A DNA stretch of 64,000 nt from the NCBI GenBank assembly GCA_021162885.1, contig JAGGXV010000022.1:57571-121570 (forward strand). The letters run 5' to 3'. Source of the stretch: a bacterium. Its GTDB lineage: Bacteria; Patescibacteriota; Minisyncoccia; Minisyncoccales; CG1-02-41-26. Positions 12,281 through 38,118 of this stretch are shown here, one piece after another. The notes under the pieces are model-generated. The model was not told where the DNA came from, did no database searches, and saw only the letters and a list, made by a program, of their open reading frames with translations. The position numbers and the translations under genes are program-made. Numbering within the stretch: the stretch's first letter is position 1; every line of letters begins with the position of its first letter.

Positions 12281-12440
12281 AAAAACTATCTCTCTTTTTC
12301 TATAATTGCAGACGATCGTCGCAAATAATAGAATAACTTTAGTTTAATTATAACCTATAACTAATTATTAACATACAACTATACAAAAATATAAGATAAA
12401 AATATAAGGTTAGAAATACAAAAATTAAAAAAATAAAAAA

Positions 12441-12514: not shown

Positions 12515-12553
12515 TCCTTATAGTTTAATGCATTTATTTTTTAGTGTAAAGCG

Positions 12554-13489: not shown

Positions 13490-13521
13490 GAAAAAATCAA
13501 AAATGGCAAGTCATAGTTATG

Positions 13522-13959
13522 TTATGGCCTGCCATTTAAATTTAATCTCTTTCTCATCTTTTTCAACTCTGAAATTAGCTCTTCAATTCCGCTTCGTATT
13601 CTTATCTCCTGTGTGATAATCACAGAAGTATCCTCTTTTTCTAAAGATTGCATTTTTTGTTTAACCTCTTTCAACCTTTTTTCCGTGTGATATAAAAAAT
13701 CTCTCACCTCTTGTATTTTTGTTTTTGAAAGCAATTCTTCTATCCATTCAAGTTTCCTTCTTATCTTTTCTTTCTCTGCTTCTTCAGTTTTCTTTGCTTT
13801 TTCTAATTCCTTGACCTTTCTTTTTAAAGTTTTTATTCGTTTTCTTCTTAATTTCGCTGCGAGACCATCTTTTCTTTTCATCTCTCTCCACGCCTCCTCT
13901 AAAATTCTTTTTTGGTCAGGATTTCTTATTCCTATAAAAATGGGTAATTTAAAGAACAT
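13522..13959 (-). CDS. hypothetical basic coiled-coil protein
   Basis: 145 aa, K/E/R-rich heptads. Confidence 0.35.
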   Translation of the reverse strand: MFFKLPIFIGIRNPDQKRILEEAWREMKRKDGLAAKLRRKRIKTLKRKVKELEKAKKTEEAEKEKIRRKLEWIEELLSKTKIQEVRDFLYHTEKRLKEVKQKMQSLEKEDTSVIITQEIRIRSGIEELISELKKMRKRLNLNGRP

Positions 13960-15331: not shown

Positions 15332-15886
15332 TTAAAAATTTTGCAATACCCTAACAATTGTCTCCCCAAATTTCCTTGCTGCTTCCGGCCCGTTTGCCGT
15401 AATAATTTTTCCATCAATTGCTACTTGCTCAGCTTGATAATTTGCCCCTTCCTCTTTTAAAATTTTAACCGCTGATTTGTCTAATCTGCTTGACCAAACC
15501 GTTGCCTTTTTGTCTTTTAAAACCCCAGCCCTTGCTAATATTGCTGGTGCAATACAAATTGCTCCAAGAAGTTTATTTTGAGAAACCGCTTCCTTGGCAA
15601 TTTTATGACATCTTTCATCGTTTATATATTTTGCTGCCCCCGATCCTCCAACAAAAACAATTACATCAAAATCTCGAACATCCAATTCATCTAAACTTAA
15701 ATCTACATTTACCACTCCCCCATAACTCCCTATCGCTTTCTCTTTTTTACTGCTCACAATTTTAACTTGAGCTCTTGCTGCTAAAAAAATACTCCGAGGA
15801 ATAAAAAGTTCTTCGTCTCGAAAATCCTGCTGAGCAATTATCATCGCAATTTTTTTATTGTTTTTTTTGTTTGAAAATTGAGTCAT
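15332..15886 (-). CDS. DJ-1/PfpI family protein (class I glutamine amidotransferase-like)
   Basis: KKIAMIIAQQDFRDEE...DVIVFVGGSGA...LLGAICIAPAILARAG (nucleophile-elbow Cys). Track N-terminal extension (EFSIFNYQFS) is a translation of the GAAAATT repeat; start at MTQFSNKK (about 15886) or MIIAQ (about 15844). Confidence 0.75.
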   Translation of the reverse strand: MTQFSNKKNNKKIAMIIAQQDFRDEELFIPRSIFLAARAQVKIVSSKKEKAIGSYGGVVNVDLSLDELDVRDFDVIVFVGGSGAAKYINDERCHKIAKEAVSQNKLLGAICIAPAILARAGVLKDKKATVWSSRLDKSAVKILKEEGANYQAEQVAIDGKIITANGPEAARKFGETIVRVLQNF

Positions 15887-15914
15887 TGAAAATTGATAAT
15901 TGAAAATTGAAAAT

Positions 15915-16964
15915 TCACTGTAAATATTTCGCTCTAGCAATGTTATGTTCTCTCAAAGTTTTACTAAAGATGACTTCTCCTTCAGGTGTTGTCAAATAGA
16001 ACCAATAAGGACTGTCTTTATAATAAACTGCGGCTCGGATAGCTTCAAGTCCAGGATTACAAATGGGGCCAAGGGGCAAGCCATAATATTTATAGGTATT
16101 CCAGGGAGAATCAATATTCATATCTTCTTTAGTTAACTCCGAGCTGGCTTTACCAGTCAGATAGGTTAAAGTCGCGTCAACTTGCAAAGGCCAACCACTT
16201 CTTAATCTTTTCCACAAAATTCCAGCTGCTACTTGACGATCCTCATAACTTTTTATTTCGTCTTCCAATAAAGAAGCCATAGTTAAAACTTCATGTAAAG
16301 TTTTACCCTGAGAGGCAATTTCTTCTCGTAAATCAGGGGTAATTTTTTGCTCGAAATTCTGAAGCATTTTTCTGACAATCTCCCCTACTGGTGCTGCCGG
16401 ATCAATCTCATAAGTATCGGGGAAAAGATAACCTTCCAAACTCACCTCATTTGGTTTCTCTTTTAAAAATTCAAACTCCTCAGAAAAATCCATTGGCTGA
16501 GGCAAGTCAGAAACCTTCGTATAATCAACGGCCGGGAACCCAGTCACCTCAAAAAGTTCTTCGGCCTGAAACATACCCTTGTTTTCAAAATACCAACCAA
16601 TATCTCTCAAATCCCAACCTTCAATAATAGTAATTTTTTCTTTAATTGTGTCGCCCTGAGTTAACTTGTTGAGTATCTGAGGAATATTCATTGACGAGGT
16701 CAAATTATATTTGCCTGCTTGAAGTTTTCTGGCTGAGTTCAACGCCAAAGCAGATAACTCAAACAAAAATCTGGATTTAACCAGGCCTTGTTTTTCCAAA
16801 TCAGAAGCAATGTCTCGCAAACTTTGCCCTTTTTCAACTGAAAAGAGAATTTCAGTTTGGGTTCCGGGTTCTTTGGGCAAATAAATTCCTTGCCAAAGCC
16901 AAGCCCCAATCAAAATCAAAACTAAAATAATTAGAATATAATATTTTTTAGAAAATTTTCTCAT
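15915..16964 (-). CDS. mltG: endolytic murein transglycosylase MltG (YceG family)
   Basis: 349 aa. N-terminal TM. YLFPDTYEI and SPWNTYKYYGLPLGPICNPGLEAIRAAVY are YceG-like motifs. Confidence 0.8.
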   Translation of the reverse strand: MRKFSKKYYILIILVLILIGAWLWQGIYLPKEPGTQTEILFSVEKGQSLRDIASDLEKQGLVKSRFLFELSALALNSARKLQAGKYNLTSSMNIPQILNKLTQGDTIKEKITIIEGWDLRDIGWYFENKGMFQAEELFEVTGFPAVDYTKVSDLPQPMDFSEEFEFLKEKPNEVSLEGYLFPDTYEIDPAAPVGEIVRKMLQNFEQKITPDLREEIASQGKTLHEVLTMASLLEDEIKSYEDRQVAAGILWKRLRSGWPLQVDATLTYLTGKASSELTKEDMNIDSPWNTYKYYGLPLGPICNPGLEAIRAAVYYKDSPYWFYLTTPEGEVIFSKTLREHNIARAKYLQ

Positions 16965-21026: not shown

Positions 21027-21617
21027 TTATTGAACTTCTCTAATCATCTTAAAAATCTTCTCCTTTAATTTTTTATTGGTTACAGTTATATTCAATACTC
21101 CAAATTTACTCTTTTTTCGGTAAGTCCCTTTTCCTTGAGGAGGTATCCTAATTATTTTACCAAGCTGGTCCTTTTTAATTCCAAGATGTTGCTCCCAAAA
21201 TTTTATGGCCTCTTTTTCATTACAATCATTAAATAAAGTTAGATAATATCCAAATTTTTCTTCTTTAGTACCGCATATCTCTACTAAAAATTCCCGAAAT
21301 TTCTTAATGAGTTGAGGGTCACTATTACTCATTCGAACGGCTGTATTATTACTACTTTTATCCCCTTCGCCCCAGTATAAACCTAACCCGATTCCTTTTA
21401 ATAAAATTTCCTCCTTATTGAGCTTATTTTTGATCTCAAATGGATCACCATTTGGATTTCTTTTGACATAAGTAGCTTCGCTCATCGATCTCCGTGGAAT
21501 GCCAAATTTTCTCATCCAATAAACGATTTTTTCATATTTCCACCCTGTTCTATCAGAAATTTCCATCATTGATAAACCACTCTTATATAGTTTTTTTAAT
21601 TTTTCTTTGGGCAACAT
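21027..21617 (-). CDS. free-standing LAGLIDADG-like homing endonuclease with N-terminal HTH, paralog of 62296-62982
   Basis: LYKSGLSMMEISDRTGWKYEKIVYWMRKFGI (HTH). GIGLGLYWGEGDK (LAGLIDADG-like). NSDPQLIKKFREFLVEICG. Shares motif order with the second copy (YWSEG..., NSDPKMILLMLRWFKEIC). Flanked directly by tRNA-Tyr (1 nt away) and tRNA-Thr (17 nt). Confidence 0.5.
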   Translation of the reverse strand: MLPKEKLKKLYKSGLSMMEISDRTGWKYEKIVYWMRKFGIPRRSMSEATYVKRNPNGDPFEIKNKLNKEEILLKGIGLGLYWGEGDKSSNNTAVRMSNSDPQLIKKFREFLVEICGTKEEKFGYYLTLFNDCNEKEAIKFWEQHLGIKKDQLGKIIRIPPQGKGTYRKKSKFGVLNITVTNKKLKEKIFKMIREVQ

Positions 21618-21701
21618 TGGGTGTGAGTGGAGTCGAACCACCTGGGCTCAGAGAGCTATGGTTTTACAGACCATCCCCGCGCCGTACGGGACTACACACC
21701 C
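21618..21701 (-). tRNA. tRNA-Tyr (anticodon GTA), long variable arm
   Basis: Minus strand GGGTGTGTAGTCCCGTACGGCGCGGGGATGGTCTGTAAAACCATAGCTCTCTGAGCCCAGGTGGTTCGACTCCACTCACACCCA. Anticodon stem ATGGT/ACCAT with loop CTGTAAA. Confidence 0.8.
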
Positions 21702-21735: not shown

Positions 21736-22413
21736 TTATTCAATGATTTTGCTGTGTTTTTTCCGCCATTCTTCAATTTTTTTGTGATTTCCAGATAAAA
21801 GGACTTTGGGTACTTTCCATTGAACTCCTTTTTTTGGTTCAAAAACTTCGGGCCTGGTATATTGAGGATATTCTCGAAATCCTTTCTCTTTGGTAATTCT
21901 TTCTTCTAATAGTTCGGATTTGCCAATAACTCCCTTAATCAATCTTGCCACTGTTTCAATAAACACTAAAGCGGGCAACTCACCGCCCATTAAAACATAA
22001 TCTCCTATCGAAATCTGTTCATCGCAGAGATACTTTGCCACCCTTTCGTCAATCCCTTCATACCTGCCACAAATTAAAATTAACTGCTCAAGTTTTGCAA
22101 ATTGACTTGCCATTTTTTGATTAAATTTTTTCCCTCGCGGGGTAAACAAAATCACTCTCGATTTGGGATTTGGGATTTGTTTGGGATTTCTCAAGCTGGA
22201 AACCGCTTTAAATATAGGTTCCAGCTTGAGTATCATTCCCCTACCCCCACCAAAAGGTTTGTCATCAACCTTTTTGTGTTTGTCTTCAGTAAAATCTCGG
22301 AGATTATGAACTTTAATTTTTATCACTCCTTTTTCTTGAGCTTTTTTTAAAATGGAATGTTTGAAATAAAAATCAAAAATCTCGGGAAAAATGGTAATGA
22401 TGTCAAATTTCAT
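21736..22413 (-). CDS. trmD: tRNA (guanine37-N1)-methyltransferase TrmD
   Basis: [41 protein letters not shown]...[12 protein letters not shown]...; contains in-frame GGGATTT repeat insert ([13 protein letters not shown]). Confidence 0.9.
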
Positions 22414-22481: not shown

Positions 22482-22802
22482 TTATAGCTTTAAATCTTCC
22501 AATCCTTCTTCTTTCTTTTCTGGAGCCTTCTCTTTTGCGGGAGCTTTTCCGCCGGCGGGCTCTTCAATCTTTAAGTTAACTCTGGCATGATTCTTGAGCC
22601 CAACAATCCGGACAAGATTCCTGATTGCTCTAGCGGTTGCTCCAGCCTTGCCAATAACAGCGCCCATATCTTCAGGATGGACTTTTAGGCTGAGCAAGAC
22701 TCCCATCTCATCCACTTTCCGGTCCACTTTAACATCATCAGGATGATCAACCAAAGCCTTAACTACGTACTCCAGAAATTCTTTATCAGTCTCTTTTGCC
22801 AT
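22482..22802 (-). CDS. KH-domain RNA-binding protein (YlqC/UPF0109 family)
   Basis: MAKETDKEFLEYVVKALVDHPDDVKVDRKVDEMGVLLSLKVHPEDMGAVIGKAGATARAIRNLV. Usual neighbour of rpsP/trmD. Confidence 0.75.
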   Translation of the reverse strand: MAKETDKEFLEYVVKALVDHPDDVKVDRKVDEMGVLLSLKVHPEDMGAVIGKAGATARAIRNLVRIVGLKNHARVNLKIEEPAGGKAPAKEKAPEKKEEGLEDLKL

Positions 22803-23206
22803 ATTCTTTATCTTTGAATTCAATTATTCACTTTTAATCAGTAGCTCGACCTTTCTTTCCTCCGATCTCCTCAATAATTCAGAGAGTCGGTCCTTGAAGA
22901 AAAGCTACATTTTTCATTTTACCCATTTAACAAAATATGTCAAGGGAAATCGCAAAAACTGCCACAAGCAGGATATCAAATAAGCTTTTCTCCAGGAAGC
23001 TGCCAGCAGGTCCCAGAATGATACGAGCATTTTCTGAGAAAGCGAGGAGAGAGATTTTTGTCTCAGGCAATTGCCAGAGACAACTTTCTCGTCTAATGCC
23101 TGATCTGGATTCAGTCCCTCGGGGGAGGGGCTAAAACCTGCTGACAGCTCCCTGAAGAAAAACCCATTTTTAATTTTACCATTTTTTTTCTTCTCCGTCA
23201 AACTCT

Positions 23207-23278
23207 CCCAGTCTCCTAAACCCAGAATAATTAACATTTCGGCACAATCGTGCCCATTTGTTAACGATTGATTTTGTT
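23207..23278. promoter_or_regulatory. 58-bp repeat R1 containing palindromic operator TTAACATTTCGGCACAATCGTGCCCATTTGTTAA (second copy at 27785-27852)
   Basis: Near-identical to 27785-27852 (3 mismatches). Imperfect palindrome with a GCAC-AATC-GTGC core. Lies at the left edge of the GC-rich island. Confidence 0.45.
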
Positions 23279-23364
23279 TCAATTTGGAAAGCTTTTTAAA
23301 GCATTTCAAGTCCAGAATAAATATTTGACACTCTCTTTTAGAATTGCTAAACTGAAGTTAGGAT

Positions 23365-23529
23365 ATGCAAAAAGCAACCACTCAACCAAAAACTAAACTA
23401 CCTCGAATTCAAACCCCAAAAGAAATTCTGAAAATCTGGGAAAGAGCTCGAGGAATATGGAAAAGCAAGAAACTCGACCCTATTAGGTATCTCAAGAAAA
23501 CTCGCAAAGAATGGGAGAAAATTTTGTAA
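23365..23529 (+). CDS. putative VapB-like antitoxin (54 aa)
   Basis: MQKATTQPKTKLPRIQTPKEILKIWERARGIWKSKKLDPIRYLKKTRKEWEKIL. Stops 4 nt before the PIN-domain gene. RGIWK...DPI.Y..K.RKEW pattern resembles small antitoxins. Confidence 0.45.
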   Translation: MQKATTQPKTKLPRIQTPKEILKIWERARGIWKSKKLDPIRYLKKTRKEWEKIL

Positions 23530-23532
23530 TCT

Positions 23533-23904
23533 ATGTTTACTCTCGATACCAATATTATCATTTATTATCTTAAAGATGAATCTAAAGTATTAAAATTTTT
23601 GCGTGAGGAGATTTTAGCCGGCTCACGCTTTTTTATTTCAACAATCACCGAGGCAGAGCTTTTTGGTTATCCTCAAATTACTTCTGAAGAGGCAATAAGA
23701 ATCAACGAAGTTTTAGCCACTCTTTCAATTATTCCTATCGATTCTCAAATAGCCAGATTGGCTGGTCTTTTCAAAAGAAAATATCAGATTTCTCTTCCTG
23801 ATGCCATTATTGCTGCCACCACCTATCTCACTAATTCCACTCTTGTTACTCGCAATATTCGAGATTTCCAAAAAATCAAAGAAATTAAAGTAAAATCTAT
23901 TTAA
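23533..23904 (+). CDS. vapC: PIN-domain toxin VapC
   Basis: MFTLDTNIIIYYLKDE...TITEAELFGYP...ISLPDAIIAATTYLTNSTLVTRNIRDF with PIN acidic residues. Confidence 0.8.
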   Translation: MFTLDTNIIIYYLKDESKVLKFLREEILAGSRFFISTITEAELFGYPQITSEEAIRINEVLATLSIIPIDSQIARLAGLFKRKYQISLPDAIIAATTYLTNSTLVTRNIRDFQKIKEIKVKSI

Positions 23905-24039
23905 CCCTCATCCAATATTTATTTTCAAAGAACTCACTTACAGATTTCCCGTAAGTTTTTTTTATTCCCAATCTCCTAAATCCAGAATAGTTTACCCCAT
24001 TAGAAATGGAATTTCTAAGCAGAGTAAATTCCAAACTTG

Positions 24040-24215
24040 GGAGATTAGGGAAGGAGGGAGATAAAGTGCGAAAAAACTCTTCCTCCTTCCTTATTATTTC
24101 AACCCTTATCTTTTTACAGCCGGCCAGGGTAACTCCGGCTAACCTTTTAGTTTTAGTTCCTCTTCAGAACTATGGCAGTCGGCTACTGTCAGGAATCTTT
24201 GCCGCCTTTTCTCAC
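24040..24215. repeat. about 175-bp repeat, copy A (shared with 25205-25365), begins with purine/pyrimidine hairpin GGAAGGAGG...CCTCCTTCC
   Basis: gggaaggagggagataaagtgcgaaaaaactcttcctccttccttattatttcaacccttatctttttacagccggccagggtaactccggctaaccttttagttttagttcctcttcagaactatggcagtcggctactgtcaggaatctttgccgc is nearly identical in both copies. Confidence 0.6.
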
Positions 24216-24231
24216 CGTGTTACCACGGGAA

Positions 24232-24729
24232 TCACGGCTTATCGACCCTTTCCAAGGCCGATTTTTTACTGTCCAATTTCTGTCCAACCACTACCGCCCA
24301 TTTCCCGGTTCGAATCGCCGCCTCAATTTCTGCTTGGGGTAGATCCGGAGTAATCAACTTGAACGAATCTTCCGGAATGAAATCCACAAGAGAAAGAGTT
24401 GGTTTCCACTCTCTCAGCCCCATCCAGATATTGCTCCTTTCCTGCCGGGAAAATCCAGAATAAACCCCAGCCCGATCAAATGACCCAGCAGGAATAAAGA
24501 CCTTCACATCCCATTTCTGTTTCAACCCAGCAAGAATTCCTTGAATTGCTACTGGTGTCCTGTCCTCATTCCATGGTTCTGAATTCCACTCTCCTCGAGC
24601 GGTCCAGAATTTCAGCTCCTTATAGATAGATTCCGGTTTCCGGCCAATCTCCTCCGACAACCGATAAACTCTTAACACAAAATTAAGCCCGATAAAAACA
24701 AGAACTTTCATTTTTTCACCTCCTTTCAT
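24232..24729 (-). CDS. hypothetical protein (GC-rich island)
   Basis: 165 aa; GC-rich codon usage unlike the host genes. Confidence 0.35.
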   Translation of the reverse strand: MKGGEKMKVLVFIGLNFVLRVYRLSEEIGRKPESIYKELKFWTARGEWNSEPWNEDRTPVAIQGILAGLKQKWDVKVFIPAGSFDRAGVYSGFSRQERSNIWMGLREWKPTLSLVDFIPEDSFKLITPDLPQAEIEAAIRTGKWAVVVGQKLDSKKSALERVDKP

Positions 24730-24730
24730 T

Positions 24731-25078
24731 TCATTTCTTTAACCAGCCCGGTATCGGGACCTCTCGGCCATCTCGCCGAGAGAGCCCTAACTCTTCAAGC
24801 GTAAACTCAAAGAGTACGGCTCCCCGGGAGATGTAACGAGAACATCTTCCTCGTTGGCGAAGAATCTCCTTCTTCACCAGCTCCCGGGCTTCATCCTTCC
24901 GGCCATCTCGAATCAGCTGGATAACCGGAAGATGCCTCCCCTCCGCGAACTTAATTTGTGGATCACCCGGGGAGTAGGCAATCCACAAATCCGGACGTTT
25001 GAAGGGGTTAACTACATAAACAACCCCTTCATCCGCCTTTCGGCCCCGGGGAGGGCCGAGGGATTTAAAAAATTCCAT
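24731..25078 (-). CDS. hypothetical protein (GC-rich island)
   Basis: 115 aa; tightly packed after previous gene. Confidence 0.35.
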   Translation of the reverse strand: MEFFKSLGPPRGRKADEGVVYVVNPFKRPDLWIAYSPGDPQIKFAEGRHLPVIQLIRDGRKDEARELVKKEILRQRGRCSRYISRGAVLFEFTLEELGLSRRDGREVPIPGWLKK

Positions 25079-25204
25079 TTTATCCTCCTTTCCCTGCCTG
25101 CCATTACTGTACTGGTCAGGTCTTACGGGAAAACTCCGTTTAAATTTTTAATCTACTAACCGTTTAAATTTAGAATCTTACTATTCTAAACTTAAATTGG
25201 TTAG

Positions 25205-25365
25205 GGAAGGAGGAAGATAAAGTGGGAAAAAACTCTTCCTCCTTCCTTATTATTTCAACCCTTATCTTTTTGCAGCCGGCCAGGGCGCTCCGGCTAACCT
25301 TTTAGTTTTAGTTCCTCTTCAGAACTATGGCAGTCGGCTACTGCCAGGAATCTTTGCCGCTCTCT
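25205..25365. repeat. about 165-bp repeat, copy B; followed by about 140 nt not present in copy A before homology resumes at cacggcttatcgaccctttgcc
   Basis: See copy A. Plus-strand ORFs over the two copies are in different frames, so the repeat is likely non-coding. Confidence 0.6.
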
Positions 25366-25527
25366 ACCGGGTTGCTGCTGCCCTCCGATTGGTTACGGTT
25401 GAGACAACCTTGGCCCGCAGTTCCCCGTTGTTTACGGGACTGCCCTTCGGCTTCTCGGGCTTACCTCGCTATCATCCCGAGTCGCCTAGACACACGGCTT
25501 ATCGACCCTTTGCCAGGGCCGGGGTTA

Positions 25528-25794
25528 CTACCTCAAAACCTCCCAATTTGTGACCTCCCAAATTCCATAATGGGAGGCCACATCCCCCACACAGGCTTTC
25601 ACCCATGTGAGGACAGAAAACAAACTCATCTGAGGTAGCAACCCAGCGATCGAGAGTTCCAACTCCCCCTTTTTTTTCGGGGTGAGCTGGACGCCCTCGA
25701 TCGCCAGCTCACTTAAAATGTACTTCCGCAATGATTCCGGAAAAGAATCCGGAAACTCTTTTCCGTCATTGCGGAAAATTTTTATTTTTAACAT
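25528..25794 (-). CDS. hypothetical small protein (island)
   Basis: 88 aa; good RBS ggaggtgagaggATG; C-terminal half overlaps the hairpin-rich region. Confidence 0.25.
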   Translation of the reverse strand: MLKIKIFRNDGKEFPDSFPESLRKYILSELAIEGVQLTPKKKGELELSIAGLLPQMSLFSVLTWVKACVGDVASHYGIWEVTNWEVLR

Positions 25795-26023
25795 CCTCTC
25801 ACCTCCATTTTCTCCCCGTCGGGCTCCAAGGCCTTAATGGGGATTGATGCGAGGCCGCTATTCGCGAAATTAGTGGTAAATTCGCGCAAATTCGCGAATA
25901 ACCACGAACACCGGCCTCGCTTCAATTATCCTAAATTACATCTCCTTTCTCAATTCACTAAAATTTAATTAATGGACTAAGAAGGAAGGTGGAAGAAAAT
26001 GGAAACTTTCTTCCACTTTATTT

Positions 26024-26395
26024 CTATTTCTTTTTGTAATAAAACTTTATCGCTTCTTCCACTATCTCAGGAAACTCCGCCTGAGGGTCTTTATCCTTTT
26101 CTGATTTCCAAATAGCAGCTCCAATTGGACAATAGCCAATTCCATAAACTGCATTTTTGCAGACCTTTGGATATTCAGGAGTGTCATGGATTTTACACCT
26201 GGCCTGAATCCATTTATTCCCTTTTTTGTGCCGTCGAACAAGATACTTACAATAGCTACAATCCGATTTCCAGGATCCATCGGGTAATTCCAAAGAATAA
26301 CTCCAACAACACCAGCCGCATCGGAGACAAATAAATGTCTCTCTTGCCATTTTCAGAAACTCCTTGAATTTCTCATAATCAAACTTTTCTGCCAT
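26024..26395 (-). CDS. YkgJ-family putative zinc/iron-chelating Cys-rich protein (CxxCGxCC, PF03692-like)
   Basis: FICLRCGWCCWSYSLELPDG...CSYCKYLV...ARCKIHDTPEYPKVCKNAVYGIGYCP. Confidence 0.55.
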   Translation of the reverse strand: MAEKFDYEKFKEFLKMARETFICLRCGWCCWSYSLELPDGSWKSDCSYCKYLVRRHKKGNKWIQARCKIHDTPEYPKVCKNAVYGIGYCPIGAAIWKSEKDKDPQAEFPEIVEEAIKFYYKKK

Positions 26396-26720
26396 TTTTT
26401 ACTCCTTATAATTTTTTTTTCAAAAGAACTATTTTTTACTCACCCTCCTTACTCAACTCCTTATTTCAGTATAAGGAACTAAGTATGAAGGGGGAAGAAA
26501 AGTAATGAGTAACTTTCTTCCCCTTTTTTTCTAATTGTCCGGGATGTCGGCCGACTTCGAAGGCGCCGACTCTGGCCCTCCCTTAAGGCACGGCTCACCA
26601 AAGGGTTCGCCGTGGAGGTTATTCGCGTAGGACCTTATTTCGGGTTACCCCTTATTCGTGTCCTACCTTATTTCCCTCACCCCAGGCACTAACCCGGCCT
26701 GGCGGGTAATTGCAGGGCGG

Positions 26721-27041
26721 TTACACCTTTACCACATCTCCTACCTTAACGGTAGGAGAGTGGCTTTCCACTACCACCCCACCCAATCTTGGGTCAAAAC
26801 ATCCGACCCAAGTAGTGGGGTGGTAGTGGTGAACCAGCGTGGCAAAAAGCCACACTGGTCCCCGCCCCGAGAGGATGACCCCTTTTTGAGGGTTGACCTC
26901 CGGGGCGGATTTCACCACCCCTTCGAGCTCTTGGGGAGTTAAACTCCCCTCGAGCTCAAACCTGACAAGCGTGAATTGCTCACGCTCATCAGGAAAAAAT
27001 TTCATTTTTCTCACCTCCTTTCCCGAATCCGCAATTTTCAT
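26721..27041 (-). CDS. Csx3/Crn3-like protein (CRISPR-associated cyclic-oligoadenylate ring nuclease / deadenylase family), standalone
   Basis: FTLVRFELEGSLTPQELEGVVKSAPEVNPQKGVILSGRGPVWLFATLVHHYHPTTWVGCFDPRLGGVVVESHSPTVKVGDVV matches the recalled Csx3 core (GV.ISGRGP.WL...LVH..H...WV..FDPRLG..VVV.SH). Alternative start M13 at about 27005. Confidence 0.5.
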   Translation of the reverse strand: MKIADSGKEVRKMKFFPDEREQFTLVRFELEGSLTPQELEGVVKSAPEVNPQKGVILSGRGPVWLFATLVHHYHPTTWVGCFDPRLGGVVVESHSPTVKVGDVVKV

Positions 27042-27092
27042 TCCGAACTCGGGAAATTAGGGAAACCCGAGAGTGTAAAGGTTTCCCTTATT

Positions 27093-27713
27093 TTATTTTT
27101 TATTATCACCTCCTTTCCAAACGACAGCATAGGGAGTGAAAAAGTAATCTGCTTCCCATCCGCCGTCGTAATTAATGTCCCCAAACCTTTTCTTCCCCAT
27201 ATAGGCAATATGCCTCAGGGGATTAAATTTTTCCGGTTTGGGTTTTATCAGCTTCCGCCCTATCCAATTCTGTCCACAAATCCACCGGTCAGCTTCTACC
27301 CAACTGTAAGCCACAACTTCAGCCCAGTTCACTTCCACAATCTGCCAGTTCACTTCCGGGTACTCTTCCTTTACCTTAGGAAAATCAGCTGCTTTTATTG
27401 CCCAGCCCCAGACTCCAGTATCTAGTACCCGCTCCGCTTGAGAATTATCGTAATTAGGATTCCGAATGAACAACAAATCCATCAGGGGACAAATCACATC
27501 TTTCCAGCCAGCAGTGGGTAGTTTCTTCCAGTTGCAGATCGGCATTCCTAACTTGCCACTCTTTTCTCCACAAATCACACATTTCCAATACACCGTTCTC
27601 CGATCAGCACAGTCCCGATAGCATCCTGCATTAACCCACGGACATTCCCCATACCTTAATGCCTTTAAGACATGGGTATGGGTTACCCCAACTTTTTTTT
27701 TCATCTTTCTCAC
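27093..27713 (-). CDS. hypothetical Cys-rich protein (island)
   Basis: 206 aa. N-terminus GECPWVNAGCYRDCADRRTVYWKCVICGEKSGKLGMPICNWKK; Trp-rich C-terminal domain. Confidence 0.4.
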   Translation of the reverse strand: MRKMKKKVGVTHTHVLKALRYGECPWVNAGCYRDCADRRTVYWKCVICGEKSGKLGMPICNWKKLPTAGWKDVICPLMDLLFIRNPNYDNSQAERVLDTGVWGWAIKAADFPKVKEEYPEVNWQIVEVNWAEVVAYSWVEADRWICGQNWIGRKLIKPKPEKFNPLRHIAYMGKKRFGDINYDGGWEADYFFTPYAVVWKGGDNKK

Positions 27714-27784
27714 CTCCCTCCAGCCAACTATTTCTAATTAACTAAAGGGAGGCGAGAAATTCCATATTCAATTTTCAAACAACA

Positions 27785-27900
27785 TCCAGTCTCCTAAACC
27801 CAGAATAATTAACATTTCGGCGCGATCGTGCCCATTTGTTAATGATTATTTCTTGTTTTAATTTTGTAACAAATCTCTGCGATCGTAAGATTTTGTTACA
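27785..27900. promoter_or_regulatory. two tandem palindromic operators with GCGATCG cores upstream of the 27713 gene
   Basis: O1 TTAACATTTCGGCGCGATCGTGCCCATTTGTTAA is a copy of R1. O2 is TGTAACAAATCTCTGCGATCGTAAGATTTTGTTACA. Confidence 0.45.
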
Positions 27901-27962
27901 CTTTATTCCGAACTTGGGAGATTGGGGAACTTAATAAGTTGTGCCTCCTTTCAGTTCCCCGG

Positions 27963-28346
27963 TTATCTATTGTTGAGAGTGCGGCGAGTCCAGTGGGGCT
28001 TCCGAAATTTTTTTACCGCTGGAAAATTCTGGAGAATTTTTTCCACTCGAGCGAGAAACTCTTTCACCAGTTCCTGCCCATTTCCATTTCGAAAAGCAAC
28101 TTCAAGCTCTGTTCCGCTCATCCACATCGGGATAATTCCTCTCTGAAGCGAATCCATTCCTTTTCCATTGAGAATCGCTTTTCTATTCACTGAGAATTGA
28201 ATCGGAAGCCAACTTCCATCGTGTCGAACCCAGAAATCTACCTTGAATTTTTCGTCTTCTGCTCGAGTAGCCCGTCGAACCTCAGTCCCGTTGCGATCCA
28301 GAAGCTCAACCATCCATTCCTCGGCCTTCAAACCGAACTTTTTCAT
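27963..28346 (-). CDS. hypothetical protein (island)
   Basis: 127 aa, no recognisable domain. Confidence 0.35.
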   Translation of the reverse strand: MKKFGLKAEEWMVELLDRNGTEVRRATRAEDEKFKVDFWVRHDGSWLPIQFSVNRKAILNGKGMDSLQRGIIPMWMSGTELEVAFRNGNGQELVKEFLARVEKILQNFPAVKKFRKPHWTRRTLNNR

Positions 28347-28468
28347 CCTTTCTCACCTCCCTTTCTTCTTTCTCAATCCCCTACCTTGTAAGGGACTAAG
28401 AAAGAAAAGGGATGGACTTTGAATTGAGTGCTTCTCTCCAGCCATCCCTTCTGGAGAGAGTTATTGAG

Positions 28469-29083
28469 TTACCATTTTCCGTTGAAAGGGTACACTTTCT
28501 CCACCCGGACATGAGAGAATAACTTAGTATTCTCTAGTCGATCCAAGGTATCCATTAGAATTTCAACCGGTTTCTTTAGGGGTTCCTTCCCAATCCAGTC
28601 ATTACCCAATTCTACAATCGCCCGCACGTAATAGGATTCCGGAGACCAAGTTTGCAAGCCCTTGGCTTCTAATCTATCCGCTGCTTCCTGATCTATCCCG
28701 ACAGACAAATTCATAAGCAAATTGCCATCGGAATTACAATATAGAAACCACTTGAAAGGATTCCCTCTATAGAATCCAGTGCCATATCCGAACCTTCTCG
28801 CCCATGCATGTTTTCCGTCCTCTTCATAAGAACTCTCGAACCTTGTCTCGCACAACTGGAAAAAACTCTCCTGTGCCTTCAATGTATACAGTTCTCCCCG
28901 CAACACCCCAGCTTCATTTTTAATCTTTACCACTTCATTTTCCAGTTCTATTCTTGCAGTTTCCAGAATCTCCACCTTTCCCTTCCATCTCTCCACTTCT
29001 TTCTGAAGAGAAGAGATATAGAATGCTCCGACTGCCACAACGACAGCCAATCCAACTGCCAGACCAATCATACCCTTAGTCAT
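28469..29083 (-). CDS. hypothetical membrane-anchored coiled-coil protein (first gene after the structured leader)
   Basis: 204 aa. N-terminal TM MIGLAVGLAVVVAVGAFYI, coiled coil, then a W/Y-rich globular domain. RBS aggaggaaaggtATG. Confidence 0.4.
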   Translation of the reverse strand: MTKGMIGLAVGLAVVVAVGAFYISSLQKEVERWKGKVEILETARIELENEVVKIKNEAGVLRGELYTLKAQESFFQLCETRFESSYEEDGKHAWARRFGYGTGFYRGNPFKWFLYCNSDGNLLMNLSVGIDQEAADRLEAKGLQTWSPESYYVRAIVELGNDWIGKEPLKKPVEILMDTLDRLENTKLFSHVRVEKVYPFNGKW

Positions 29084-29099
29084 ACCTTTCCTCCTAATT

Positions 29100-29955
29100 T
29101 TTATTCTCCTTCTATTTTAGCAAGGAGTGCACCGCGCACTTTCGGCCAACAACTTACTTTTGGACAGCAAGTGTTGGTTGGCGCGTCCGCCGATGAAAGT
29201 GCACGGGCGCACTCATTACTAAGGTTGAGAGGGGCGGAGGCGAGCGAAATTCACTTTTCTTCTCCTCGGAGAGAAAAGTCAACCTCACTCCTTATTTACG
29301 TCCCTTAGCGGGAAACCTCACATTACATTTACCCCTGATTGCCGCAACCTGTCTTTTAAGGTACTGACTCTCTCCTCTGAGAGAAGGATGGAGGAGAATT
29401 GATTAGGAACTGAGGAAGATTGAGGCCAAAATTTTTAATCTCCTAAGGGAGGGGCTTGCCTTCTTCCTCAAAGCCATTTTATTGCCTACCGAGTAAGGGC
29501 ACACAAAGCCACAAACCAAGCCAGGCATTTTAGCTCACATTCCGCTTTCAGCGAAATGACTCTCTCCTCCATCCTTCTCCCCCAGAAGTTTTTCAACCTC
29601 CGGAAGAGTTCCTTATTAAGTTGGAAGGTGCTTTCTCCTCAAAATTCTTTGAATTTTGAGGACCCCACTTTCGCCAGCGACTCCTTCCGCTTTTAGCGGG
29701 AGTCGTGCTCGCTGGCGGCCAAAGGAGACTTATCTCCTTTGGAATTCTTTTTTTTAAACAAACAGGCGGCTCTCGGAGAGAGCCGCCTGTTTGCTAAATT
29801 TTCGTTATAAAGCTCTATAACGAACGGCTTTTTTTCCGCCACGCTTTTACCGCGCGACGACTCTCTCCTCTGCCCCGTTAGATACGAAGTTATCTAACTG
29901 GGGTCTTTTTTTTTATTTTTATTTAATTTGGAAGAGCTTTTTTATTTTCTCCAGA
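29100..29955 (-). ncRNA. about 850-nt hairpin-rich untranslated leader / candidate ncRNA downstream of the triple promoter
   Basis: No ORF of 60 aa or more on the minus strand. Strong hairpins: aaacaggcggctctc..gagccgcctgttt; cgccagcgagcacgactcccgctaaaagcggaaggagtcgctggcg; ccaaaggagataagtctcctttgg; cctcaaaattcaaagaattttgagg. GAGGAGAGAGTC recurs three times; inverted copies lie about 190 bp apart. Confidence 0.3.
29873..29920 (+). terminator. plus-strand intrinsic-terminator-like hairpin plus T9 run; on the minus strand it sits just downstream of the P1 transcription start
   Basis: ccccgttagatacgaagttatctaactggggtcttttttttt. Confidence 0.35.
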
Positions 29956-29962
29956 CACTTAC

Positions 29963-29991
29963 ATTATAGCATATCGTTAAATTCTTGTCAA
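29963..29991 (-). promoter_or_regulatory. perfect consensus sigma70 promoter P1 (TTGACA-17-TATAAT)
   Basis: Minus strand ccTCTTGACAagaatttaacgatatgcTATAATgta. Confidence 0.7.
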
Positions 29992-30030
29992 GAGGTTTGA
30001 AGGAATTTTCATCTTTTTGCAACCGCTTTA

Positions 30031-30059
30031 ATTATAGTATATTTTCATATTCTTGTCAA
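30031..30059 (-). promoter_or_regulatory. perfect consensus sigma70 promoter P2 (TTGACA-17-TATAAT)
   Basis: Minus strand TTGACAagaatatgaaaatatacTATAATtaa. Confidence 0.7.
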
Positions 30060-30111
30060 GGACATTTGCATTCTTTCAACAAATTTCTTCTCACACTCTC
30101 AGACATTTTTA

Positions 30112-30140
30112 ATTATAGCAAATTGAATTAGTTTTGTCAA
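30112..30140 (-). promoter_or_regulatory. perfect consensus sigma70 promoter P3 (TTGACA-17-TATAAT)
   Basis: Minus strand TTGACAaaactaattcaatttgcTATAATtaa. Confidence 0.7.
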
Positions 30141-30159
30141 GAGCTAAACAACTTATTTA

Positions 30160-30759
30160 TTAATTAAAACCAAATCTGCGTATTTTTTCTGAGGTGCAAC
30201 AAATTTTTTGTGCATTCTTAACGCTCTTTAGCCATTGCCAAAGAACGCTCTCTTTCGTTCTTCCTCTTTCTTTAATGTCTCGATTCATTCTTCTTTGAAG
30301 CCGTAATTTTTCGGGAGCTTCCACAAACACTTTAAGATCAAGTTCTCCTCTCAAAGCCCTATTTAAAGCAAATAACCCCTCAACAATTATCACTTTTGAG
30401 GGGAAATAACTCTCATACCTCACTCTTTTGCGAATAACAAAATTATAAACTGGCTTTCTTATTACCTTACCTTTTTTCAAAAGTTTAAGATGTTTTTTTA
30501 ACAAACTCATCTCAAAAGCCGAGGGACAGTCAAAATTTCTATCTTTCATCTTATCAATTCCAATATAATAGTCATCCATTAGAAAAATTTTAGCCCCTGT
30601 AGCTTTTGAAATGGCTACCGCTACATATCCCTTTCCTGAACCAGAACCTCCAGCAATTCCAATAATAACTACTCCTTTTCCTTTTTCTATTAGTTCTTTT
30701 ATGGAATCTATGATTTTATTAATTCCCTGTTTTAGATTAAATATTTTTTTCTTCCTCAT
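30160..30759 (-). CDS. udk: uridine kinase / phosphoribulokinase-family nucleoside kinase
   Basis: P-loop VVIIGIAGGSGSGKGYVAVAISK; PRK/Udk-like fold. Confidence 0.6.
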   Translation of the reverse strand: MRKKKIFNLKQGINKIIDSIKELIEKGKGVVIIGIAGGSGSGKGYVAVAISKATGAKIFLMDDYYIGIDKMKDRNFDCPSAFEMSLLKKHLKLLKKGKVIRKPVYNFVIRKRVRYESYFPSKVIIVEGLFALNRALRGELDLKVFVEAPEKLRLQRRMNRDIKERGRTKESVLWQWLKSVKNAQKICCTSEKIRRFGFN

Positions 30760-30794: not shown

Positions 30795-31370
30795 TCACCT
30801 CTTTTTTTCCTTATCTTCAGAGGGAGCACTCGCTTTCAGGATGGTATCTGGTGTTTCAGCGGAAGCTTCAGCAGCGACGGATTTCTTCTCTTCTTTCGGC
30901 TCTTCCTCTTGTTTCTCTTTCTGGGTTTTTGGTTGTTTTGGTGGAGTTTTTTCTTCTTTCACCTCTTCTTTTGGTTGCTCTTCTTCCTTTTTTTCCTTTT
31001 CTGGTTCTTTCGATGCCTCTCCAGATGGCACCTCTTTCCCTTTTTCTTCAGTTTCTCTGGCTTCAGCTTTTTCCTCTTTTGCTGCCTCTTTTTCTTTCTT
31101 TTTTGACTTTTTATGAACATCTATTTTCTTTCCTTTAATAATCCCCTCCTTTACTAATAAATTATGAACACTTTCAGATGGTTGAGCGCCAACACCTAAC
31201 CAATGTTTAATGCGTTCTGCCTTCAATTTTTTCTCTTTAGTTAGAGGATTAAAAAATCCAAGAATTTCCAAAAACCTGCCACCTCTTGGTGGATTCTTTT
31301 TGTCGGTAACCACTATTCTGAAAAATGGCTGATTCTTTTTTCCAGTGCGTAAGAAACGAATGACTAACAT
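30795..31370 (-). CDS. rpsP: 30S ribosomal protein S16 with about 100-aa K/E-rich C-terminal extension
   Basis: MLVIRFLRTGKKNQPFFRIVVTDKKNPPRGGRFLEILGFFNP... then KEKEAAKEEKAEARETEEKGKE... tail. Confidence 0.85.
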   Translation of the reverse strand: MLVIRFLRTGKKNQPFFRIVVTDKKNPPRGGRFLEILGFFNPLTKEKKLKAERIKHWLGVGAQPSESVHNLLVKEGIIKGKKIDVHKKSKKKEKEAAKEEKAEARETEEKGKEVPSGEASKEPEKEKKEEEQPKEEVKEEKTPPKQPKTQKEKQEEEPKEEKKSVAAEASAETPDTILKASAPSEDKEKKR

Positions 31371-31380
31371 AGCTAATAAT

Positions 31381-31535
31381 TTTCAACTTACAATTTTCAA
31401 CTTACAATTTTCAATTTTCAATCAAGCTCCAATTTTCCAATTTTCAATGAAATTCACTCCGAGATTAGCAAAGAACTGTTTGAAAATTGGGTAATTGAAA
31501 ATTCATTGATAATTGGTCATTGAAAATTGATAATT
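31381..31535. repeat. intergenic inverted-repeat element built from ATTTTCA / TGAAAAT heptamer repeats (family seen at many intergenic sites)
   Basis: Left arm (t)tttcaacttacaattttcaa... Right arm ...tgaaaattgggtaattgaaaattcattgataattggtcattgaaaattga. Can fold into a long imperfect hairpin. Confidence 0.6.
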
Positions 31536-33324: not shown

Positions 33325-33450
33325 CTAATTTTCAATTTACAATTTACAATTTTCAATCAAATCCCAATTTTCAATTTTCAATTATCGTTTGAAAATTAAA
33401 TCATTAAAAATTCATTGAAAATTGGTCATTGAAAATTGAGAATTTCCTTC
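33325..33450. repeat. intergenic heptamer inverted-repeat element (ATTTTCA...TGAAAAT)
   Basis: ttgctaattttcaatttacaatttacaattttcaatcaaatcccaattttcaattttcaattatcgtttgaaaattaaatcattaaaaattcattgaaaattggtcattgaaaattgagaattt. Confidence 0.6.
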
Positions 33451-34040
33451 ACCGGCCTGAATGTTTTTCGGTGTATCTTGCAAGGGCCATATTTTTTTAA
33501 CATTTTAAAATGCAATTTCGTTCCATAACCCTTGTGTTTATCAAAGCGATATTGAGGATATTTTTTATGATATCTCAACATTGCTCTGTCTCTGGTAACT
33601 TTAGCCACAATAGAGGCAAGTTTTATCAGAAACACTTTTTCATCGCCTTTTATAATTGACTTTTGAGGAAATTGCGAATCTATCCTAAAATTTCCATCAA
33701 TCAACAAAAATTTTTCTCTCGTTAAATCATTGCTATAGCAGTAATTCGACGATAGTTTTTTCTCTAAATTTTTTACTGCTTTTTTCATTGCTAATTTTGT
33801 CGCTTTGAAAATATTTATTTTATCTATCACCTTCTCAGAAACCCGTCCTATCCCCCACTCAATCTCTGGTGATTTTTTTAAAATCTCAAAAATCTCTTGC
33901 CGTTTTTTAGGACTAAGTTTTTTTGAGTCCTTCAACGTATTTGAAAATTGAAAATTGAAAATTGAAAATTTCTGGGCTGTAATTGCACAAGCAATTACCA
34001 GGCCAGCTAATGATCCTCTCCCTGATTCATCGATTCCCAT
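33426..34040 (-). CDS. rnhB: ribonuclease HII
   Basis: MGIDESGRGSLAGLVIACAI...; contains in-frame GAAAATT repeat insert (FSIFNFQFS). Confidence 0.85.
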   Translation of the reverse strand: MGIDESGRGSLAGLVIACAITAQKFSIFNFQFSNTLKDSKKLSPKKRQEIFEILKKSPEIEWGIGRVSEKVIDKINIFKATKLAMKKAVKNLEKKLSSNYCYSNDLTREKFLLIDGNFRIDSQFPQKSIIKGDEKVFLIKLASIVAKVTRDRAMLRYHKKYPQYRFDKHKGYGTKLHFKMLKKYGPCKIHRKTFRPVKEILNFQ

Positions 34041-38039: not shown

Positions 38040-38118
38040 AAGAGAAATAATTTTCAATTTTCAATTATCAATTTTCAATTTTCATTGAATTCCCAATTTT
38101 CAATTTTCAAACTTAAAA
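38040..38118. repeat. ATTTTCA heptamer repeat array between dnaE and thrS
   Basis: aattttcaattttcaattatcaattttcaattttcattgaattcccaattttcaattttcaaac. Confidence 0.6.

Follow-up and report, generated by a model that had tools for sequence, protein, structure and literature searches.

In the 64-kb window analysed here (64,000 nucleotides of contig JAGGXV010000022.1, from a member of the Patescibacteria/Parcubacteria), the ribosomal protein gene rpsP is separated from khpA, which encodes a KH protein, and the neighbouring trmD by a long spacer filled with small genes and structured RNA elements. This spacer, positions 22,984-30,160 (to 30,759 if the adjoining kinase gene udk is counted), is probably the largest complete instance of a recurrent, variable gene-cassette array in Parcubacteria that is independent of an integrase. 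Carriers of such arrays are found in Nealsonbacteria, Gribaldobacteria and related lineages, and the arrays occupy the spacer between rpsP and the promoter of khpA-trmD. They combine a fixed frame at a fixed site with interchangeable cassettes, conserved sense-strand RNA structures at the cassette junctions and accessory cargo. The coordinates of all features are compiled in Table 1; related loci are denoted by L numbers.

The nearest relatives of the host, identified in a TrmD scan of the GTDB species representatives, were metagenome-assembled genomes of the Gribaldobacteria and Nealsonbacteria type with at most 79% identity. In these relatives the gene order is rnc-rpsP-KH(khpA)-trmD-rpmG. 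Comparison of related genomes, which had been suggested in an initial annotation made by a model from the sequence alone, defined the empty site: there, the rpsP-KH spacer measures 0.03-0.9 kb and consists of a consensus promoter and a short conserved leader, followed by khpA. Among 67 loci with both rpsP and the KH gene, none of the 39 spacers shorter than 900 nt contained motifs of the platform, and 22 of the 28 spacers longer than 1 kb contained at least one of the elements HP, LEAD, END, TAIL or CAT, which are described below. Several relatives have spacers of 1-5.6 kb that are likewise raised in GC content, array GC exceeding flank GC in nearly all cases. With 8.3 kb the spacer of the window was the largest complete one in this set.

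The frame shared by the arrays is made up of one to three perfect σ70 promoters (P), the LEAD sequence GAGGAGAGAG(TC), a conserved GC-rich hairpin (HP) and an END element. When HP was used as a search pattern, 50 matches were obtained in JGI metagenomes and none among the 2.9 million viral contigs of IMG/VR. By our own count, the order (rnc-)rpsP-P-LEAD-HP-...-END-KH-trmD was present in 36 of these 50 matches; three lay in another context, ten on contigs too short to tell, and one (L138), on a contig of 64% GC, was rejected as a chance match. The combination P-LEAD-HP ... END would, if confirmed, provide a practical metagenome marker for such arrays. In the TrmD tree array-bearing species were scattered, one small clade (L018, L033, L041) being uniformly positive, and the closest sequenced species (L010, TrmD 79% identity) had an empty site.

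In the window, GC content in 1-kb bins was 0.43-0.47 at 24-30 kb and 0.30-0.40 across the remainder, and a 200-nt profile placed the boundaries at ~24,040 (up) and ~29,900 (down), with local peaks of 0.53-0.57; over 24,040-29,900 the values were 0.43-0.56, compared with ~0.35 for the host. The GC content at third codon positions (GC3) was 0.38-0.58 in g1-g8, eight minus-strand open reading frames (ORFs) at 24,232-29,083 which all possess a strong GGAGGTGA ribosome-binding site, and 0.26-0.32 in most of the 14 sampled host genes, the exceptions being the KH gene (0.40) and a thyX-like ORF (0.42). Both profiles confirm the atypical GC-rich segment that the initial annotation had seen between rpsP/udk and KH-trmD. 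The extent of 23300-30160 given there was too wide: the GC-rich segment begins only at ~24,040, and as vapBC (GC3 0.33 and 0.26) and udk (0.26; 0.255) are host-like in composition, the anomaly is narrower than described. Coding sequence accounts for only 69% of 24,232-29,083, the 806 nt between the promoters and g1 are devoid of ORFs, and ~43% of the GC-rich segment is non-coding structured RNA. An rRNA operon or a known non-coding RNA (ncRNA) as the cause of the GC rise was rejected, since Rfam searches with gathering and E-value thresholds gave nothing in the island. In Rfam 15 the leader, X, END, B and CAT elements had no match; only tRNAs and one group I intron were detected, all outside the island and the arrays.

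The initial annotation had interpreted the segment as a single recent horizontal insertion, a foreign island of ~7 kb within a canonical rpsP-KH-trmD operon. The atypical GC and GC3 values speak for such an event, as do the empty site in L010, the location of the closest csx3 relatives outside arrays on putative conjugative elements and the mostly archaeal origin of the named csx3 relatives. We nevertheless consider a single insertion improbable, because the same platform with shared cassettes was found at the same locus in many species, which largely refutes it. The large leader RNA of the window, of which 98 of 100 aligned columns are conserved in one block in L098, is 74-76% identical to its counterpart there, at or above the 73-78% identity of the flanking genes; vapBC and udk are host-like in composition; and the array is internally mosaic with duplications inside (X twice, the 3' arm of B three times). 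Relatives with the same genes at this locus, named beforehand as evidence against a foreign island if their composition was host-like, were found in part, with g3 in L004/L005 and g2 in L072. The platform of promoter, leader, cassettes and END is present at this locus in dozens of species and metagenome contigs, GC being raised there too. Horizontal acquisition stands as gene flow, evident from the csx3 relatives and from cassettes present across species, and not as one foreign 7-kb insertion. Also the notion of a disrupted operon did not hold: khpA promoter and khpA leader are intact downstream of the array, so that the insert lies upstream of the native promoter and not inside the transcription unit proper. 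The gene rimM, reported as missing, is indeed absent from the locus, yet it was likewise absent in all 80 relatives examined, and its absence in the window is therefore a lineage trait rather than an effect of insertion.

The very strong promoters postulated for the island were recovered at its rpsP end as three σ70 promoters that match the consensus at 12 of 12 positions. Across 1.14 Mb of related loci, no more than 65 such perfect promoters were counted, many of which lie at the rpsP-khpA locus, and a promoter followed by the same leader occurs at 24 distinct loci. The possibility that they represent a displaced native khpA promoter was rejected, as in the window, and in every array, khpA has retained a promoter and a leader of its own. 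In an ENA contig from the same population (L001), positions 1-45 depart from the window (30042-30085) inside promoter P2, with TATACTCTAAGT as the -10 region, an indication that strains differ in how many tandem promoters they have or in the promoter sequence, or else that the end of this contig contains errors. Within the platform leader, HP of the window has the sequence CAGGCGGCTCTCTC-loop-GAGAGCCGCCTG with a weak U-tract, the form shared among arrays being CAGGCGGCUCUCUC-loop-GAGAGCCGCCUG. In L072, visual inspection of the sequence showed a compensatory replacement of the lower stem of HP. The idea of a conserved leader peptide that begins at the ATGAC before HP was rejected, because the reading frame differs among loci.

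The platform leader of the window is followed by a large structured leader RNA, which is closed by a long-range helix between a GA-rich and a CU-rich strand. Its minimum free energy was -281.9 kcal/mol compared with -198.2 kcal/mol for shuffled sequences (z = -18.65). Between the window and L098, none of the 135 predicted pairs was broken and five were compensatory, and hairpins were inserted in a modular fashion. The closing helix together with LEAD2 and LEAD3 recurs in L104, L093, L108 and L115; this leader-extended form is a sub-family of the arrays that includes the window.

At the opposite end of the array, 160-250 nt before khpA, the END element displays an unpaired AAAAUCUCUCUCCUC (CUCUCUCCUC), the complement of LEAD. 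END is conserved in L004, L014, L015 and L145, where 11 of 51 pairs are compensatory and the unpaired CU tract is invariant. Complementarity of 8-13 bp between LEAD and END was present in each of the 19 arrays in which both were found. True compensatory changes occurred in L115 (GAGGGGAGAG/CUCUCCCCUC) and L135, and all other internal deviations were compatible with G.U pairing. The inverted complementarity of 10 nt with its tolerance for G.U points to an RNA interaction rather than to terminal repeats. The khpA leader beyond END (window 22841-22908, minus strand; ~38 related loci) has the form AGUAGC, variable hairpins, often with GAUUCUC-loop-GAGAAUC, and AAAGGUCGGGCUACU. It was found with and without arrays, in minimal forms of 33-35 nt, and has no match in Rfam; possibly it regulates the khpA-trmD operon in cis.

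The paired repeats mentioned in the initial annotation were located as two pairs (24045-24205 = 25201-25360 and 23208-23285 = 27786-27863), and its palindromic operators turned out to be mostly conserved RNA hairpins with G.U pairs. The B hairpin, present in two copies and in a short form at ~27,064, folds into a 21-bp helix with 85.5% of the cells paired and 14 of 21 pairs compensatory; none of 500 shuffles matched any of these measures. Three positions have conserved G.U pairs, which restricts the fold to the sense strand. In 17 of 23 copies one position does not pair and, as judged by eye, mostly holds C.A. Directly after the B hairpin follows TAIL, a single-stranded GUUCUUUGAAAA. At several junctions, in the window at g3 and g2, a hairpin is predicted to pair a CU-rich stretch with the Shine-Dalgarno sequence. 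These sequestering hairpins are kept between the window and L077, which also shares the loop of the g3 hairpin. In other arrays, though not in the window, the position of B is taken by a related element, CAT, of 60-130 nt (UUCAUAGCGGCG...CGCCGCUAUGAA). For X RNA, compensatory changes were seen in 13 of 83 predicted pairs among three sequences, namely the two copies of the window and L098. At 26396-26720, the GC-rich spacer is followed by two hairpins, one terminator-like and one of type A, the latter 30-95 nt ahead of the g5 start. Judged from sequence comparison, the arrays may harbour at least three new families of structured RNA (the 650-nt leader, X and END) in addition to the CAT element. 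Three other candidates were discarded: TAIL as a σ70 promoter, due to the lack of a -10 element at suitable spacing; a dif/XerCD-like site in the palindrome of the B loop, due to unsuitable arm spacing; and direct CTCTCTCC repeats around the whole array as att sites, as these occur only in L109/L110, L114 and L135.

Cassettes are shared between species. An ORF census of 69 motif-bearing loci, which takes in flanking DNA on contigs lacking both anchor genes, sorted 334 ORFs into 173 singletons and 58 families. The gene g2 recurs in L098, L093/L126, L072 (in the same spacer) and L015. A g3 homologue stands directly before the END preceding khpA in L004/L005, and between vapBC and a g7-like gene in L006. 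Members of the udk family are internal cassettes in L118 and L128 (56% identity), where they occur together with g5 (57% identity in L118), and a csx3 copy with 80% identity to g4 is the last cassette before END in L145. Between L033 and L092 the flanks are 97-99% identical, and the arrays alternate between blocks of 71%, 94% and 78% identity; two segments without counterpart are whole-cassette replacements bounded by junction modules. L118 (3904-5150) and L128 (1004-2250) share a stretch of 1.25 kb, made up of the udk cassette, a junction, END and the first part of khpA, at 99.9% identity, but their rpsP regions are only 72% identical; this pattern indicates that either the lineages recombined recently or one contig is a chimera.

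These exchanges bear on the alternative that the array is a vertically inherited, fast-evolving and lineage-specific extension of the operon without cassette mobility, its GC content resulting from RNA structure and expression. The uniformly array-positive L018/L033/L041 clade, the conserved elements of the frame and the GC-rich, structured non-coding parts would agree with vertical descent. Strains with almost identical flanks that differ by whole cassettes and by blocks of 71-78% identity would not, nor would the nearly identical segment in the divergent L118 and L128 backgrounds. Furthermore, the same gene family occupies different positions in different arrays, and GC3 is raised also in the coding cassettes. 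The distribution of cassettes and the identity blocks already suggest that phylogenies of cassette families conflict with trees of TrmD or ribosomal proteins. We therefore regard purely vertical evolution as very improbable.

The organisation of the arrays also resembles that of integrons. In an integron-like system, B, CAT and TAIL would be attC-like sites used by a recombinase encoded elsewhere, and circular cassettes would be inserted behind a strong, Pc-like promoter and excised again, corresponding to a cluster of attC sites lacking integron-integrase (CALIN) with a new kind of site. Like sedentary chromosomal integrons and CALINs, the arrays have a very strong promoter at one end and compact, unidirectional, mostly promoterless cassettes of small orphan ORFs, toxin-antitoxin cassettes included; their content differs between close strains and their composition from that of the host. 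Cassette order varies among arrays and the end points of rearrangements lie near junctions. Their junctions consist of imperfect inverted repeats in which a single unpaired position is conserved and sequence conservation is concentrated at the ends, and direct copies of the B 3' arm (23988-23972 and 23228-23212) bracket vapBC. Unlike in integrons, neither IntI nor any other recombinase was found with the array: a Pfam scan that covered 20 of the 21 ORFs in the window with a length of 250 aa or more yielded housekeeping families only and no integrase, transposase or cas gene, and no tyrosine or serine recombinase was seen there or in a partial look at related loci. The ORF left out of that scan (349 aa, 15915-16964) has a counterpart in L007 that carries a precomputed YceG match. 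By eye, the repeats do not follow the attC R''/R' consensus. The junctions end with ...CCCAAGTTCAGAAT / ATTCTGGGTTTAGGAGA and then GTTCTTTGAAAA, which fit neither the RYYYAAC nor the GTTRRRY core, TAIL starting with GTTCTTT where GTTRRRY is required. The G.U pairs, the AU-rich linker, the hairpins sequestering Shine-Dalgarno sequences and the fixed position in the 5' untranslated region fit an RNA function better, and the mosaic identity blocks resemble homologous exchange. Integrons are also not framed by a structured leader and a complementary END at a fixed ribosomal-gene site in a host from the candidate phyla radiation (CPR). Taken together, an integron-like system is the less convincing explanation and seems unlikely to us.

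That the array is a degraded prophage, an integrative and conjugative element, another integrative element or an assembly chimera is extremely improbable. Contigs of other assemblies do end precisely at two repeats, that of the tandem promoters and the duplicated X element, and the small genes lack known functions. Against these origins, no island protein matched PHROGs below E = 0.05, no integrase was found, HP is absent from viral contigs, both junctions are 100% identical in independent assemblies, and synteny with relatives extends over both flanks. Window positions 24,178-21,250 are matched at 100% identity by a JGI contig of a different project, and an ENA contig reproduces rpsP-udk-P1 and runs into the start of P2. 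The island is real DNA and not an assembly artefact, since independent contigs agree. The nature of the locus also accounts for the breaking of assemblies of such genomes between rpsP and khpA. An artefact of another kind, a fold-back in the assembly, makes up the first 77 nt of contig L007.

For the cassette array we propose the following mode of operation. The strong promoters would produce a long polycistronic RNA. HP combines a strong hairpin with a weak U-tract; it would attenuate this transcript or mark the end of an abundant short leader. The intercistronic hairpins of ~21 bp, with the AU-rich TAIL, would act as sites of processing or stability; a candidate enzyme is RNase III, whose gene rnc is located immediately upstream of rpsP in all relatives, and cleavage would free the sequestered ribosome-binding sites. 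Pairing of LEAD with END may close the transcript or insulate the essential khpA-trmD genes from read-through. Cassettes would be gained, lost and swapped by homologous recombination within junction modules and conserved flanks after DNA uptake, without a dedicated integrase; homologous exchange is the simplest view, and it fits the mosaic identity patterns.

Several points weigh against this proposal. Polycistronic transcription, attenuation at HP, processing by RNase III and LEAD:END pairing are all deduced from sequence. A site-specific recombinase could act in trans from the part of the genome outside the 64-kb window, and RNA structure and high expression could contribute to the raised GC alongside a foreign gene pool. 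The ends of homology blocks lay closer to junction motifs than random positions (median 89 vs 167 nt; 64% vs 39% within 120 nt); since junctions are conserved in their own right, this statistic is in part circular. Six large spacers (L025, L030, L036, L044, L076, L078) were free of motifs at the thresholds used, and a few copies of the platform (L108, L115, L122) do not adjoin rpsP. As the HP pattern served as metagenome query and the search for loci relied in part on junction motifs, the conservation of HP is subject to ascertainment bias; most arrays are on short contigs, and some ORFs of the census are probably spurious.

Bacteria of the CPR (Patescibacteria) have tiny genomes, and little is known about the uptake and expression of accessory genes in them; the locus looks like a dedicated and widespread slot for this. 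We tentatively suggest, as a possibility rather than as the expected outcome, that the arrays represent a previously undescribed, integrase-independent cassette platform of the CPR in which the RNA modules are both expression logic, through processing, unmasking of Shine-Dalgarno sequences and 5'-3' closure by LEAD:END pairing, and the recombination substrate by which small accessory and conflict genes are shuffled among species. No description of such arrays in CPR bacteria was found in the literature searched on CPR integrons or hypervariable islands. If confirmed, the platform would be a functional analogue of integrons in the CPR, where none was found reported in the literature searched, and a concentrated source of small orphan proteins with a probable role in phage, host or plasmid conflict, including a stand-alone ring nuclease. 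It would also add several new structured RNAs with testable roles.

Parallels to other known systems are partial. The early region of phage T7 is transcribed from promoters A1-A3 and has RNase III sites between genes, hairpin processing controlling stability and translation. Like that region, the array of the window has three tandem consensus promoters of the host type, followed by small genes on a presumed long polycistronic transcript, anti-defence genes included, with imperfect ~20-bp hairpins between them; unlike it, the array is chromosomal and non-viral with variable gene content, its hairpins are unrelated, and RNase III cleavage is only presumed. With hotspots of horizontal gene transfer and defence islands the arrays share a fixed site at core genes, variable content and conflict-related cargo (Csx3, VapBC, the nuclease-like protein, MoxR-VWA in L104), whereas ordinary hotspots are not unidirectional arrays of small ORFs and lack a frame of promoter, leader, junctions and END. 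The 650-nt leader and X are long, GC-rich relative to the host, structured and covarying, as are the large ncRNAs OLE, GOLLD, HEARO, ROOL and raiA; in contrast to these, they are known from two to five sequences only, belong to no Rfam family and are embedded as leader or 3' untranslated region in an mRNA array.

The cargo appears to be accessory and conflict-related, which is partly shown by the proteins recognised. Besides Csx3, VapBC and several orphans, it includes a small protein predicted to adopt a PD-(D/E)xK-like fold, a CxxCxxCC protein that presumably binds metal, and a coiled-coil protein of the membrane. The eight small minus-strand genes and vapBC listed in the initial annotation were all recovered as ORFs, with Shine-Dalgarno sequences and a PIN domain in VapC (1.8e-16). 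Its statement that the gene set matches no nameable module applies to most of the proteins, with Csx3 and the PIN domain as recognisable members: g1, g3, g6, g7 and g8 had no match in Pfam, PADLOC, PHROGs or NCBIfam, and searches of g1 and g8 in PDB sequences, as well as a profile search with the g5 family, gave nothing meaningful. Csx3 was the sole match of the island proteins in PADLOC, i.e. no known defence system was detected there. Among 20 large cassette proteins from other arrays, 15 had no Pfam match; the other five contained MoxR, VWA, M12 peptidase, lectin-like and DUF1284 domains.

The product of g4 is the Crn3/Csx3-like protein of the initial annotation, scoring above the cut-offs of both Pfam (PF09620, 5e-30, 103.5 bits; cut-off 21) and the NCBIfam equivalog TIGR02579 (111 bits; cut-off 55.4), with a PADLOC Csx3 match at 5.6e-32. 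It aligns end-to-end with AfCsx3 of A. fulgidus (1.7e-23; phmmer, 3WZI/6VJG). In AfCsx3, residues S44-G45-R46, H57, H60, D69, R71 and H80 bind and cleave cyclic tetra-adenylate (cA4; PMC7371418). All of them are retained in g4, and I49 is replaced by Val. Thus, g4 is apparently an active ring nuclease that would quench cA4 signalling, and by lowering cA4 it could either damp the type III response of the cell itself or protect incoming DNA. The window yielded no cas10, no type III CRISPR system and no CRISPR array, the Pfam scan covering the ORFs specified above. In retaining the AfCsx3 catalytic residues g4 is like stand-alone ring nucleases (AcrIII-1/Crn2 of viruses and plasmids, Crn3/Csx3); it differs from those on mobile elements by its position in a chromosomal array and by the lack of a visible type III CRISPR system in the window. 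The closest relatives of g4 outside arrays are 61-63% identical, and named relatives are mostly archaeal. On L141 (85 kb) csx3 is situated among genes for topoisomerase, HU and many small ORFs, and L143 (38 kb) carries TraG/TrbC genes of a type IV secretion system, GC being 0.43-0.48. L141 and L143 may be conjugative elements with ring nucleases as anti-CRISPR cargo, and the occurrence of g4 relatives on them fits an anti-type-III or damping role.

Structure prediction gave mixed results for the other proteins. The g2 model reached a predicted local distance difference test score (pLDDT) of 86, and its top structural neighbours, with modest scores, were the PD-(D/E)xK proteins Hjc, Vsr, RAP, I-Bth0305I and VRR-NUC. 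In g2, E9, D31, D37 and K35 are invariant, and the third strand reads IQFS instead of (D/E)xK. The model suggests a restriction-endonuclease-like fold with an atypical catalytic motif and uncertain catalytic competence. For g3, the AF2 model failed to provide a usable structure (pLDDT 35); only three homologues were found among 5.8 billion proteins, every one of them in arrays. The resemblance of g5 to YkgJ proved weak. The protein itself had no Pfam match at E values up to 1, and four of 26 homologues matched PF03692 (CxxCxxCC) weakly, at best with 2.5e-4. The g5 family comprises 30 representative homologues among 1.84 billion proteins; in its motif C-x2-C-G-x-C-C, G27, C29 and C30 are invariant together with three further Cys residues, and C23 and one more Cys nearly so. 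The vapB candidate is a 54-aa ORF without family match that ends 4 nt before vapC, and homologous vapBC pairs are present in the arrays L006, L104 and L113. The udk product scored 142.7 bits with the NCBIfam uridine kinase model, under its cut-off of 180.

Table 1. Positions of the array elements, cassette genes, flanking genes and host repeats in the 64-kb window
Feature	Position	Strand	Description
rpsP	30795-31370	-	flanks the array on one side
udk	30160..30759	-	udk-like P-loop nucleoside kinase; translationally close-coupled behind rpsP
Tandem σ70 promoters	29963..30140; at 30140, 30059, 29991	-	three perfect TTGACA-N17-TATAAT (12/12); each in a 34-nt repeat (family D4)
Platform leader	29754..29905	-	hairpin 29905-29872; LEAD1 GAGGAGAGAGTC 29870-29859; HP 29798-29754
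Large structured leader RNA	29095..29745	-	651 nt; LEAD2 29569-29558, LEAD3 29377-29366
g1	28469..29083	-	204 aa; N-terminal transmembrane helix, coiled coil, C-terminal domain; orphan
g2	27963..28346	-	127 aa; cassette family F1, at least 6 arrays; predicted PD-(D/E)xK-like fold
B hairpin 1	27705..27929 (junction module)	-	5' arm 27929-27905, 3' arm 27808-27786; palindrome-bearing loop
TAIL copies	27783-27772; 23933-23922	-	first copy GTTGTTTGAAAA
g3	27093..27704	-	203 aa; Cys/Trp-rich orphan
g4 (csx3)	26721..27005	-	Crn3/Csx3 ring nuclease
Spacer after csx3	26396..26720	-	GC-rich, structured; GC 0.468; repeat families D5, D8, D16
g5	26024..26395	-	123 aa; CxxCGxCC Cys-rich protein, putative distant YkgJ relative
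g6	25528..25794	-	88-aa orphan
X RNA copy 1	25195..25527	-	~320-nt structured RNA, strong terminal hairpin; z = -4.9
g7	24731..25078	-	115-aa orphan; g7-like gene follows g3 in L006
g8	24232..24711	-	159-aa orphan; last codons run into X copy 2
X RNA copy 2	24045..24265	-	without central domain; 3' 160 nt 96-99% identical to copy 1
B hairpin 2	24052-23966	-	in module 23922..24052; vapBC terminator on the other strand there
vapB-vapC	23365..23904	+	reversed relative to the other genes; own promoter 23325-23353
Palindrome and B 3' arm, second copy	23208..23285	-	95% identical to 27786-27847 (62 nt), 91% over 79 nt
END element	22984..23202	-	~180-nt structure, 30-bp outer helix; core 23055-23044
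Native khpA promoter and khpA leader	22840..22943	-	TTGACA-16-TAAAAT; GUAGC...AAAGGUCGAGCUAC; right-hand boundary of the array
KH (khpA)	22482-22823	-	other flank of the array
trmD	21736-22413	-	next to KH
(TTGAAAA)n / TTGAAAATTGRTNA copies	1449-1478, 15871-15915, 31378-31529, 33327-33438	either	
(TTGAAAA)n / TTGAAAATTGRTNA copies	33941-33970, 38049-38110, 58445-58578, 59651-59684	either	

Two further loci deserve mention. The array of L104, on a contig of 12.4 kb (oriented 213 to at least 12377), is longer than 12 kb without khpA being reached within the contig, and it holds a vapC homologue and a gene pair encoding a MoxR AAA+ protein and a VWA protein (bpMoxR, 4.7e-46). In L015 (Nealsonbacteria; 10648-13563), a second khpA copy is located downstream of trmD, with a g2 homologue, two B hairpins and an END-like element ahead of it; a piece of the platform thus stands at a second site.

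In the flanks of the array, rpsP has a Lys/Glu/Pro-rich C-terminal extension of ~110 aa (30795-31130, minus strand). The length of this extension differs among relatives, which explains much of the spread in length of the 'empty' spacers. Between trmD and rpmG, a minus-strand ORF of 204 aa (21027-21641) overlaps tRNA-Tyr (21618-21701); it has an N-terminal helix-turn-helix-like region and, by eye only, a LAGLIDADG-like motif (LGLYWGEGDK), and no Pfam match was obtained at 1e-4. Homologues occur in some relatives only, many of which are array carriers; the ORF might encode a free-standing homing endonuclease, which could promote recombination nearby.

Elsewhere in the window, gyrB (54903-58457, minus strand) encodes a product of 1184 aa with an intein (Pfam Intein_splicing) after the Toprim domain. 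A group I intron (RF00028, 69 bits; 63100-63347, minus strand) lies between the ORFs 62296-62982 and 63408-63971, adjoined by tRNA-Met and tRNA-Asp. The thyX-like ORF of 445 aa (51484-52821, minus strand) contains two ThyX (Thy1) domains, and its GC content (0.435) is, like its GC3, above that of its neighbours. Tandem heptamers (TTGAAAA)n and 14-mers such as TTGAAAATTGRTNA were found on either strand, mostly in intergenic regions of the host and with a few copies inside called ORFs; the cassette TAIL motif (GTTCTTTGAAAATTGAATA) resembles these repeats, which could be clustered -35-like or UP-like elements or could serve as an RNA signal.

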